From assembly GCF_024700885.2 (NCBI RefSeq), contig NZ_CP117016.1: DNA of 64,000 nt; one strand, 5' to 3'. Made by a program: the position numbers and the translations under genes. Source of the DNA: Escherichia coli. Lineage in GTDB: Bacteria > Pseudomonadota > Gammaproteobacteria > Enterobacterales > Enterobacteriaceae. This document shows positions 3,268-5,417 of the stretch, one piece after another. The first letter of the stretch is position 1. The number at the start of each line of letters is the position of its first letter. The notes under the pieces were generated by a model. The model was not told the DNA's origin and ran no database searches. It was given only the letters and a program-made list of their open reading frames with translations.

Positions 3268-3516
3268 GTATGAAAAAAAATAGTATAGATATAATGCTCC
3301 TTACGCGTTATGGCATAGTTATATGCTAGTCGGGCGATTAGCCAGACTCGAACTTATTGAACGGTATTAGGGTTGCGCTTGGTGTGCCTCTGGATTGCAC
3401 TCCATGCTGTCGCGCAATCCAGAGGCACACCAAGCGCTTCCTTTAGGTAAGTGAGTAAAAACAGCACCTTCTTCGATTTATGATGAAGGTGCTGCAATCG
3501 TAACGTTTTTTGTATA
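3268..3516 (+). ncRNA. Putative retron msr-msd non-coding RNA region (boundaries approximate)
   Basis: Lies directly upstream of the effector-RT operon on the same strand. Contains a perfect 24-bp inverted repeat (3375-3398 / 3414-3437, 15-nt loop) suitable as the msd stem and a second 10-bp hairpin (3467-3499). Candidate a1/a2 inverted repeats GTATG-A8 (3268-3280) and T6-GTATAC (3503-3514) are imperfect. No msDNA evidence available. Confidence 0.35.
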
Positions 3517-3529
3517 CACGGATAGTATA

Positions 3530-4498
3530 GTGGCTGAGACATACGAAGATAAAGTTGCTAATCATGTTTCAGAGTGGGAAATGGAAAATTTCCGTGTATG
3601 TTATGATGATCAGGTTATTTTCTTATGTGGTGCGGAAGTACTTCCTCAAGGAAGTGTTCAGACTTCAATGAGAGGGCATTTTTATCACTATTGCCTGAAT
3701 AAAAATAAAGATATAGCTGATAAAATAATTCTTGCCGAAAACTTCAAAAAATATCTTCAAAATAATCATTATCCAGACTTAATAACTTTTGAGCATGATG
3801 TTGCAAGTATATCTAGTTTAGTTGTTATTTTCTTGGAAAGCAGTGGTTCAATTGCTGAGTTAGGTGTTTTCTGTAATATTAGTGATGTCAATAAAAAATT
3901 ATTGATATTTGTTCCATCAGATGAAGTTGAAGGTGACAAGAAAGAGTCTTTCATTTACTTAGGGCCTTTATTGTTTTTAAAAGAAAAGGTCAATGAAAAA
4001 GCATTTAAGATTTATCCAAAACCCACTAATGGTTCTGATTACTCCGAGCATTTAGAGATTATGGCTGATGACTTGGCTGAACTATTACCTAGAAGTGGTA
4101 AGTTTGAAAGCTTCGATCCTGACAATTTAGGGCATATAGCTTTTCTTATATGCAGAATTGTGCATTTAGTAATGCCTATTAAGCTAAAGGAAATATTAAA
4201 TTGTTTAAAAATAATAGGTATCAATAAATATACTCTGACTGAGGTTGAAAGAATTTTGTTTTTATTGGAAACATTGGGTTTTATAAATATTTATCCGTAT
4301 GGCGATTTAAAATACTATTATTCAATGCAAGCCAGGCAAAATCTTAAATTAGGGAAAAATAAAACCGGATTCACAATCGATGAGGCTGGTATTTTTACTG
4401 ATATTAGTGTTTTTATCAATGACAATAAATTATGTAGTGATAAAAAAAGACGGCTGGTTTTGAAAGGCATTAAGGAGAAGCATAATGGACATAATTAA
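3530..4498 (+). CDS. Retron-associated effector, nucleoside 2-deoxyribosyltransferase-like N-terminal domain plus C-terminal domain of unknown function (322 aa)
   Basis: Motifs VIFLCGAEV and ESSGSIAELGVF resemble the NDT signature (Rossmann strand ending in Gly; D/S-x-G-T/S-x-x-E-x-G with catalytic Glu). Overlaps RT start by 14 nt. Start is GTG 3530 with a weak RBS; ATG 3581 is an alternative. Confidence 0.55.
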   Translation: MAETYEDKVANHVSEWEMENFRVCYDDQVIFLCGAEVLPQGSVQTSMRGHFYHYCLNKNKDIADKIILAENFKKYLQNNHYPDLITFEHDVASISSLVVIFLESSGSIAELGVFCNISDVNKKLLIFVPSDEVEGDKKESFIYLGPLLFLKEKVNEKAFKIYPKPTNGSDYSEHLEIMADDLAELLPRSGKFESFDPDNLGHIAFLICRIVHLVMPIKLKEILNCLKIIGINKYTLTEVERILFLLETLGFINIYPYGDLKYYYSMQARQNLKLGKNKTGFTIDEAGIFTDISVFINDNKLCSDKKRRLVLKGIKEKHNGHN

Positions 4499-5417
4499 AA
4501 AAATCGCAGATGAAACTCTAATGCCGGTATCAAAAGTATCTGCTTTTATATTTACAGCCCCATATAGATATAAAGTATATCCCATCCCCAAAAGGAATGG
4601 TGGGTTTAGGGAGATTGCTCAACCGTCAAGGGCATTAAAGTTTATGCAAAGGATTGTTATTGCTGAACTAGAGAAAGTACTTAAGGTTCATGAAAACGCA
4701 TATGCTTATGTCAAAGGACGTAGTATAAAAGATAATGTGGAAAAGCATCAAAGAAACTCTTATATTTTGAAAGTTGATTTCTGCGACTTTTTTAATAGCA
4801 TAAACCCTTACGACCTTGAGTTATGTTTAAAAAACAATGGGTTAGACTCATTGTTAAGCTCACAAGAATTATTGAATAAACTTTTTTTCTATAAGAAAAG
4901 TAAAAGAGGTGCTTTATCAATGAGCATCGGGGCACCTAGTTCTCCATTTTTGTCAAATGCGATTATGTATAAGTTTGATTCAGTCATTAGTGATATGTGT
5001 TCAAATAAAAATATTACTTATACAAGATATGCTGATGATCTTACATTTTCTACTAATGAAAAAGGTATTTTGTATGAATTCATACATGAAATAGATAAAG
5101 TTCTTGAGGAGATAGATAGTCCTAAATTAAAACTAAATGATAAGAAAACCATATTTGCATCTAAAAAATGCAATCGTCATATAACAGGAATTGTTATTAA
5201 TAACGAAGAAAAACTTTCAATTGGTAGAGATAAAAAACGTTACTTAAGTAGTTTAATTCATAAATTCTCGCTTAATGCACTTAATGAGGAAGGAGTTGAA
5301 CATTTAAAAGGGTATTTGGCGTATGTAAATAAAATTGAACCTTCATTCATTAGCAGAATGAAAAGGAAATATGGAGTCGAAGTTGTCAACTCCATAATCA
5401 CATTTAATCCATTATAA
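4485..5417 (+). CDS. Retron-type reverse transcriptase (310 aa)
   Basis: RT motifs read directly: LKVDFCDFFNSI (motif A Asp), GAPSSPFLSNAIM (motif B'), TRYADDLTFS (YADD catalytic motif C), LKLNDKKT (motif D), RHITGIVIN (VTG-like retron motif). Size is typical of retron RTs (300-320 aa). Strong RBS AAGGAG 8 nt before ATG. Confidence 0.85.
   Translation: MDIIKKIADETLMPVSKVSAFIFTAPYRYKVYPIPKRNGGFREIAQPSRALKFMQRIVIAELEKVLKVHENAYAYVKGRSIKDNVEKHQRNSYILKVDFCDFFNSINPYDLELCLKNNGLDSLLSSQELLNKLFFYKKSKRGALSMSIGAPSSPFLSNAIMYKFDSVISDMCSNKNITYTRYADDLTFSTNEKGILYEFIHEIDKVLEEIDSPKLKLNDKKTIFASKKCNRHITGIVINNEEKLSIGRDKKRYLSSLIHKFSLNALNEEGVEHLKGYLAYVNKIEPSFISRMKRKYGVEVVNSIITFNPL

Follow-up and report, generated by a model that had tools for sequence, protein, structure and literature searches.

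The type II-A1 retrons were defined, with St85, Vc81, and Ec73 among their members, by Mestre 2020 (PMC7736814). Retron-Sen2 (St85) from Salmonella Typhimurium and Retron-Eco9 from Escherichia coli NILS-16 have been described as tripartite toxin/antitoxin systems, in which the complex of the reverse transcriptase (RT) with the multicopy single-stranded DNA (msDNA) inhibits the toxin RcaT, and for which Dam, RecE, and RT-Eco1 were reported as triggers (Bobonis preprints). For Retron-Eco3 (Ec73), defense requires the YADD motif of the RT and a Glu residue of the effector (Millman preprint). In P4-like satellites, the cos-adjacent region from psu to int is a hotspot for cargo genes (Rousset 2022, PMC9122126). 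The stretch of E. coli DNA considered here, 64,000 nt of contig NZ_CP117016.1 from RefSeq assembly GCF_024700885.2 (hereafter the window), very probably holds a complete retron of type II-A1 (St85/Sen2 family), carried as cargo by a P4-like satellite prophage of ~12.5 kb in its cos-proximal hotspot. Its components follow the msr-msd, effector, RT order of Sen2 and Eco9:

3295..3304, + strand: a1 arm of the noncoding RNA (ncRNA), UGCUCCUUAC, pairing in RNAfold with 3447-3451 and 3453-3457
3296..3365, + strand: msr, which supplies the RNA of the msDNA and the stem-loops that the RT recognizes; full-length match to the Rfam model RF00170
3368..3446, + strand: msd, the msDNA template, holding a perfect 24-bp stem (3375-3398 / 3414-3437)
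3447..3457, + strand: a2 arm, GUAAG-U-GAGUA, from RNAfold and covariation
3462..3494, + strand: 13-bp hairpin (inverted repeat) between the ncRNA and the effector gene, followed by a T6 run at 3506-3511
3530..4498, + strand: effector open reading frame (ORF) with a GTG start, 322 aa; St85/RcaT family, with an N-terminal domain resembling nucleoside 2-deoxyribosyltransferases (NDT-like) and a winged helix at the C terminus
4485..5417, + strand: retron RT ORF with an ATG start, 310 aa; YADD at residues 182-185, ITG at residues 233-235

The two ORFs, with the RT motifs YADD and ITG, the 14-nt overlap between them, and the perfect 24-bp hairpin ahead of the operon had all been pointed out in an earlier note on this DNA, and all of them are present. 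The shared 14 nt (ATGGACATAATTAA, 4485-4498) join the effector and RT genes, and a Shine-Dalgarno sequence, AAGGAG, is found 7 nt ahead of the RT ATG. In the RT, residues 84-88 (NVEKH) occupy the position of the NAxxH signature of the retron "region X," with N84 and H88 invariant among 29 relatives; the V-to-I change that turns VTG into ITG also occurs in the validated RT-Vch2 (Simon 2019). The protein scores 408 bits (6.6e-123) against the PADLOC model RT_II-A and 347.4 bits against the NCBIfam model retron_St85_RT (cut-off 235), and among solved structures it comes closest to the RTs of Ec78 and Ec83 (about 1e-77). An RT of another kind, from a group II intron or a DRT/UG or Abi system, or a decayed and inactive retron remnant might be suspected on the grounds of a fold that is only generic to RTs and of the truncated retron remnants that occur in E. 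coli (strain E2348/69). Either is very improbable: the comparison of models that the earlier note had called for gives 67.5 bits for the group II intron model (cut-off 300) and less than 50 for the Drt2-5 models, and the sequence is 100% conserved in at least 20 genomes. To judge from the sequence, the retron locus is intact, its catalytic motifs, both ORFs, and the RNA helices being present and conserved.

The effector matches the PADLOC model NDT_II-A (2.3e-79) and the NCBIfam model STM3845_fam ("retron St85 family effector"; 224.5 bits, cut-off 100). A phmmer comparison aligns it to the Ec86 effector at 1e-6 and superimposes the putative catalytic Glu, which is E110 here. The AlphaFold (AF2) model, built with 68 homologs, has a mean predicted local distance difference test score (pLDDT) of 93.9; its best Foldseek match is the Retron-Eco1 effector (8qbk_E, E 2.8e-9). 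The C-terminal domain resembles the winged helices of MecI, BlaI, ArsR, and PadR in Foldseek, and residues E70, E88, E110, S140, and G145 are invariant in the 68 homologs.

The hairpin that the earlier note took for the ncRNA proved to be its msd stem; the msr lies upstream of that hairpin, at 3296-3365, and matches RF00170 with 53.4 bits (gathering threshold 52; E 2.1e-07). The arms of the msd hairpin are 24 nt long, 100% complementary, and separated by a 15-nt loop; the chance expectation for a perfect 24-bp inverted repeat in 64 kb is ~1e-8 (~64,000 positions times tens of loop sizes, divided by 4^24). The msd region scores 53 bits, under the gathering threshold of 80, against the Rfam family STnc400, which we take to be the St85-type msd region of Salmonella. 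For the region 3290-3462 as a whole (173 nt), the folding energy is -83.4 kcal/mol, compared with -48.7 +/- 4.4 kcal/mol for its shuffled versions (z = -7.96), and the RNAfold structure has the textbook retron form, in which the msr stem-loops and the msd hairpin lie inside the a1/a2 helix.

Trained on this ncRNA together with three relatives, a covariance model detects counterparts of it upstream of more than 50 of 80 related loci taken from species-representative genomes. In the resulting alignment of 58 sequences, 94.8% of the paired cells are filled by pairs, compared with 61.6% in shuffled and 36-43% in slid controls, compensatory changes are seen at 42 of the 47 pairs, and covariation backs all 9 helices, although the fitting of the alignment to the model, and the inclusion of a few msd hits on the reverse strand, may have inflated these measures somewhat. 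The covarying helices include the a1/a2 helix (helix 1) and the msr stem-loops (helices 2-4). In msd helices 7-8, all 23 stem pairs show compensatory changes, exclusively as double substitutions from one Watson-Crick pair to another, with zero G-U intermediates, which the msr helices, unlike those of the msd, do tolerate; a stem free of G-U pairs would be consistent with selection acting on the DNA hairpin besides the RNA. The branching G is predicted directly after a1, at 3305-3307, and most likely is G3307, given the Rfam msr alignment (UUAcGCG) and the St85 "branching G to T" primer (Bobonis supplement file 5).

The 24-bp msd stem is near-identical in the E. coli, Klebsiella, and Mangrovibacter copies of the retron (window 3375-3437; L002, 4796-4972; L007, 2187-2363; a further relative, L004, at 294-464, was also compared), with loops that differ and a single C-to-A change in L002 and L007 that results in a mismatch. 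Its retention across genera whose retron proteins are only ~56% identical suggests that the msDNA stem is recognized by its sequence. In L002 and L007, the place that the 13-bp hairpin occupies in the window, between ncRNA and effector gene, holds a hairpin of unrelated sequence with TTTT immediately after it. This post-ncRNA hairpin could be an attenuator or partial terminator that may set the ratio of ncRNA to mRNA.

The locus thus combines the RT signature motifs with an adjacent ncRNA that contains the a1/a2 helix, msr loops, msd hairpin, and predicted branching G, as expected of retrons in general. What is characteristic of type II-A1 is also found, namely, the matches to NDT_II-A and RT_II-A, the effector fold with a winged helix, and the ncRNA-effector-RT order. 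The type II-A layout read by the earlier note is accordingly upheld by the family models, the Rfam msr, and the gene order. As a retron, it is ordinary in kind, one more uncharacterized lineage of a well-described family, with an RT no more than 51% identical to that of any relative outside its own clade. Its practical interest as a retron is modest and lies in the compact RT of 310 aa and the perfect 24-bp msd stem.

PHROG and PGAP (the NCBI annotation pipeline) gene calls also agree with the placement, made in the earlier note, of the retron after psu and ogr in a P4-like satellite, for which the window holds the following features:

185..736, + strand: 3′-terminal part of the satellite's alpha-type primase gene, truncated at the window start; PHROG 1139 DNA primase, 1.1e-35
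1137..1880, + strand: Sid/Psu-like satellite gene; PHROG 6165 "Psu-like," 9.9e-92
1877..2428, + strand: psu, polarity suppression protein; PHROG 6366, 9.2e-69, "phage polarity suppression protein" in PGAP
2425..2706, + strand: ogr/delta-like zinc-finger activator; PHROG 603, 7.5e-22, "ogr/Delta-like zinc finger family protein" in PGAP
6202..6220, + strand: candidate satellite attR, TGTGCCGTATTTGTGCCAT; one copy of a 19-nt direct repeat (one mismatch), its partner 12,458 bp upstream

The integrase gene and most of alpha lie to the left of the window and were seen in an identical locus (L001), where the integrase gene is 12.5 kb leftward and the alpha gene product is named "TOPRIM and DUF927 domain-containing protein" by PGAP. 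With these, the P4-like core set of integrase, alpha primase, sid-like gene, psu, and delta/ogr is complete. The partner repeat, a candidate attL, is found at L001 4545-4563, just ahead of the integrase gene; the repeat sequence is unique within the window, with 0 occurrences expected by chance. The element bounded by the two repeats, at ~12.5 kb, fits the size range of P4-like satellites (about 10-13 kb). It adjoins a LysR pseudogene near paoABCD, and no tRNA gene was found at the integration site. The GC content of the retron is 32%, against 50-52% in its flanks. The retron is located after Psu and Ogr/Delta, matching the hotspot of Rousset 2022 (PMC9122126), and the locus constitutes a further documented case of defense cargo in the hotspots of P4-like satellites.

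Several results weigh against this assignment as a type II-A1 retron in the cos-proximal hotspot of a P4-like satellite. The RT scores almost as high on the PADLOC model RT_I-A (389 bits, 3.3e-117) as on RT_II-A, and the subtype therefore rests on the effector. For the 322-aa effector, Pfam-A has no match to NDT or any other family, including the NDT-like PF15891; of the NDT-like motif seen in the earlier note, the part that stands is the agreement with PADLOC, NCBIfam, and the Ec86 effector with its aligned Glu, and the "NDT-like" label is one of family membership and of the Ec86 effector fold. The cos sequence of P4 and P2, GGCGAGGCGGGGAAAGCAC, has no match with up to 4 mismatches at window positions 1-7000; the relatives L002 and L007 do have it. 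No consensus sigma-70 promoter upstream of the msr passed the scan, the candidate there (TTGTAT at 3261-3266, a 17-nt spacer, and TATAGA at 3284-3289) being weak, and in this copy the hairpin after the ncRNA does not qualify as a canonical terminator. Finally, no experiment on this retron was found in the literature, nor was any paper naming or testing the locus, in searches by WP_000351381, WP_000852448, A3RLX4/5, and the msd stem sequence.

A diverged cos candidate, GGCGTGCGGGGCTGCGCAC, was read from the sequence at ~2919-2937, between ogr/delta and the retron, and may point to a different helper phage. Beside the candidate attR, at 6281-6496 on the - strand, lies the C-terminal fragment of a LysR-type regulator (a PGAP pseudogene), followed by an intact LysR gene at 7080-7964 (- strand); the fragment may have been left over from the integration site or from an older insertion. 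Directly to the left of the integrase gene in L001 is a P22-like tailspike/acyltransferase region.

Among the named retrons, Ec73 is similar to the window locus in belonging to type II-A1 and in being the cargo of a P4-like satellite, phiR73, and the earlier note had left room for the locus to be Ec73 itself. That identity was rejected on published data rather than by sequence alignment. The catalytic residues of Ec73 are RT D189/D190 and effector E117 (Millman preprint); the corresponding residues here are D184/D185 and E110, the length of the RT is different, and no in-frame upstream start codon reconciles the two numberings. The chromosomal sites differ as well, phiR73 having been integrated at selC (Simon 2019) and the window element lying beside the LysR pseudogene near paoABCD. 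Identity with Eco9 was also rejected: the rcaT-Eco9 cloning primer JB368 (atgAGTGATTCTGCATATGAATGC...; Bobonis supplement file 5) has 0 matches in the window with up to 3 mismatches, and the Eco9 protein begins with MSDSAYEC (same file), compared with MAETYEDK in the effector of the window. The type II retron listed as P4 hotspot system 8 (Rousset 2022 Table S1B) was excluded by the 44% identity of the two RTs, and none of the three cargo proteins of the window had a match in the portion of the Rousset 2022 supplement that was available.

Retron-Eco1 (Ec86, type II-A3) shares with the window locus the effector fold (PDB entries 8qbk_E, 8qbl_E, and 7xjg_J, E about 1e-9), with the same two-domain layout of NDT-like domain and winged helix and an aligned catalytic Glu. 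It differs in the ncRNA and in the RT, which is distant (123 bits; the Ec78 RT scores 263 bits). The Ec86 effector gene is located downstream of the RT gene. The Ec86 retron resides in a P2-like prophage (Simon 2019). Conversely, the type I-A retrons with PtuAB, such as Ec78/Eco7 and Ec83/Eco4, share the RT clade and the ncRNA type, and the ncRNA covariance model also detects the element in loci without an NDT effector; however, type I-A retrons encode a PtuA ATPase and an HNH nuclease downstream of the RT, while the effector here is NDT-like and encoded upstream of it.

Since Sen2 and Eco9 are type II-A1 retrons with RcaT as the toxin and RT-msDNA as the antitoxin, the same mechanism would be expected here by analogy, and its steps can be proposed by homology to Retron-Sen2, Eco9, Ec73, and Ec86. 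A transcript starting near 3295 would fold so that a1 (3295-3304) pairs with a2 (3447-3457). The RT would then bind the msr stem-loops, prime from the 2′-OH of the branching G (3305-3307), and copy the msd leftwards, and the product would be a branched msDNA with a predicted length of about 75-85 nt, the DNA of which forms the 24-bp hairpin. The RT-msDNA complex would bind and neutralize the toxin-like effector, made up of an NDT-like N-glycosidase domain (Glu110) and a winged helix. The toxin would be set free when phage functions modify, methylate, degrade, or sequester the msDNA. Infected cells would then arrest, an abortive infection that would protect the host of the satellite. The gene for an additional protein, described next, is inherited with the retron as one cassette.

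The earlier note described the cargo as the retron, which it is, but did not list a third conserved gene that immediately follows it on the opposite strand:

5412..5894, - strand: 8xMP gene ("RipA-family octameric membrane protein" in PGAP), 160 aa; Pfam PF24838, 1.8e-28
5370..5396, - strand: terminator-like hairpin with a T-rich tail, 3′ of the 8xMP stop codon and inside the 3′ coding region of RT; from a consensus scan only

The 8xMP and RT genes are convergent, with a 6-nt overlap at the RT stop codon. Since the terminator-like hairpin of 8xMP lies within the RT gene, the convergent transcripts would overlap as antisense RNAs over the 3′ end of RT. The protein contains two hydrophobic segments (2 predicted transmembrane helices), and its AF2 model is all-helical (pLDDT 93.4). 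The fold matches AFDB50 entries named "SMODS and SLOG-associating 2TM effector domain" (SLATT) and fusions with TIR domains; no related solved structure was found by sequence or by fold. PADLOC (v2) has no match for 8xMP and no model linking it to retrons, and a literature search for 8xMP or "RipA" in defense returned only RIPA buffer and unrelated RipA proteins.

The same trio of effector, RT, and convergent 8xMP genes, the stop codons of the latter two overlapping by 4-6 nt, is found in all relatives with RTs at least 54% identical to that of the window. These come from Klebsiella (L002, L003), Mangrovibacter (L007), Serratia (L093, L094), Leclercia (L095, L096), Atlantibacter (L097, L098), public read-run (Logan) assemblies (L004 as well as L005 and L006), and viral contigs (L099, L100); a scan of viral contigs with a narrow 8xMP alignment found only two copies of the trio and one actinobacterial locus. 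The RTs of the trio-carrying loci are monophyletic in a neighbor-joining tree. In this the clade differs from the other type II-A1 loci sampled (those of Sen2 and Eco9 not being among them): in jackhmmer and family hidden Markov model searches, 0 of ~65 other II-A1 or I-A loci had an 8xMP gene within 5 kb. In E. coli, 8xMP and the retron occur in exactly the same 23 genomes. All three genes diverge together, the identity between the two deep branches of the clade being 56-59% for the effector, 54-56% for the RT, and 40-44% for 8xMP. The cargo of L093 and L095 is closely similar (effector 94%, RT 87%, and 8xMP 84% identical) on backbones that are not (sid-like protein 22%, Ogr 41%, and integrase 65%). 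The co-divergence and the occurrence of near-identical trios in dissimilar backbones indicate that the trio moves and persists as a unit.

These observations make a functional coupling of 8xMP and the retron plausible as far as comparative genomics can suggest. Such coupling would amount to a four-part system, in which 8xMP would serve this retron clade as a second, membrane-acting effector or as a modulator, and in which the NDT-like effector, once released, or the loss of RT-msDNA would activate 8xMP, directly or indirectly. The convergent 8xMP gene in every sampled member of a monophyletic clade, its absence from the ~65 other loci, the shared set of 23 genomes, and the common divergence and cohesion of the trio across backbones all favor it. 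However, the 8xMP gene appears to have a terminator-like hairpin of its own, the characterized II-A1 retrons Sen2, Eco9, and Ec73 have been described as three-part systems, and joint transfer is no proof of coupling, because recombination in the flanks can swap the entire contents of a hotspot. With this evidence on both sides, the four-part system is a serious possibility that falls somewhat short of being probable.

The same facts can be read as two independent systems sharing a hotspot, namely, a standard three-part II-A1 retron and a hitchhiking 8xMP gene that would be a single-gene defense or exclusion factor or an orphaned effector. P4 hotspots commonly hold several unrelated genes in either orientation (Rousset 2022, PMC9122126), and the location of 8xMP on the opposite strand with its own terminator-like site, as well as the lack of an 8xMP match and of a retron-8xMP model in PADLOC, fits that description. 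Such independence is harder to square with a pair that has been kept in all lineages despite deep divergence and backbone swaps. On the whole, the chances of two independent systems are about even, and the behavior of 8xMP elsewhere bears on both explanations.

The 8xMP family is large, with 2705 clusters (at 50% identity) matched at E <= 0.001. Nine informative contexts were sampled outside the retron clade, and in all 9 the 8xMP gene adjoins a gene of the same strand for a sensor or signal generator, the partner being a ThsB-like TIR protein in 8 of them and an NB-ARC protein in 1 (TIR partners in L088, L090, L091, L092, L102-L104, L107, L108, and L110; NB-ARC in L109). There are also TIR-8xMP fusion proteins, and the adjacent pair looks like an undescribed module of TIR and a membrane effector. 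That 8xMP was never alone in the 9 contexts argues against a hitchhiker. No TIR or NB-ARC partner is present in the hotspot of the window; that the retron is the sole neighbor of 8xMP there, together with the partners and fusions seen elsewhere, speaks for a four-part system. Conversely, the Thoeris-like TIR modules and all the other sampled contexts have the partner codirectional with 8xMP, whereas here 8xMP is convergent to the retron RT, and the retron effector showed no similarity in hhalign to the TIR proteins that accompany 8xMP elsewhere (a match probability of 0.13 in that program), both of which speak against a four-part system.

A more specific proposal, put forward tentatively and on balance rather doubtful, is that a satellite-borne II-A1 clade recruited 8xMP, a SLATT-like protein, as a fourth component. 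The NDT-like N-glycosidase would replace the TIR enzyme and, on its release, would activate a membrane-disrupting octamer, either directly or via a nucleotide-derived product. If true, this would be a dual-effector retron bridging retron and TIR/Thoeris-type signaling, and the large, uncharacterized 8xMP family would acquire a role in immunity. Even in a more general form, a functional link would mean a new retron variant with a membrane effector, as well as a genetically tractable entry, in E. coli, to an unstudied family of putative immune effectors. The clade-wide link of 8xMP to the retron and the TIR-8xMP pattern of the family are the only part of this locus that could be new biology.

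The C-terminal TTIINII motif of 8xMP, encoded at the junction with the RT gene, is invariant. Its codons vary synonymously among the loci, which places the constraint on the protein; for the same reason, the motif was rejected as a DNA- or RNA-level signal at the gene junction. In the wider family, one of the 8 contexts with a TIR partner is a caspase-TIR-8xMP-TIR array on a Clostridium perfringens plasmid.

The retron locus is present, at 96.5-100% identity, in 23 of the 5426 complete E. coli genomes and is labeled as a retron there by PGAP; no other II-A retron similar to it at the DNA level was found in these 5426 genomes. RefSeq contains the exact proteins under the name "retron St85 family," and their clusters cover more than 1000 contigs each, with members in E. 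coli, Salmonella, Enterobacter, and Morganella. Because the NCBI pipeline and the PADLOC models already recognize the locus, its discovery value as a retron is low.

The backbone of the window satellite is unlike that of classic P4, with the integrase gene far to the left and on the same strand as all other genes, and with an alpha protein of the TOPRIM+DUF927 type. The trio-carrying relatives L002, L093, L095, and L097 have divergent alpha and sid operons and an int gene beside the cargo, and the phylogeny of the satellite backbone proteins is incongruent with that of the cargo.

Partial relatives of the retron were seen in two other places. E. coli E2348/69 (L105; NC_011601.1, 1701554-1701605) has 52 nt of msr with 92.5% identity to that of the window, located upstream of a truncated, 133-aa RT remnant; an ABC-three-component system and a piece of an integrase gene lie beside it. 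This decayed retron occurs in ~20 E. coli genomes. The 11.5-kb sequence PQ189325.1 of Vibrio phage 10N.261.55.B9_PE001, which is of satellite size, contains at 6475-7604 an msr-like segment (86.5% identity over 52 nt) together with an RT sharing 47% identity with that of the window, and is another mobile element with a clade-1 retron as cargo.

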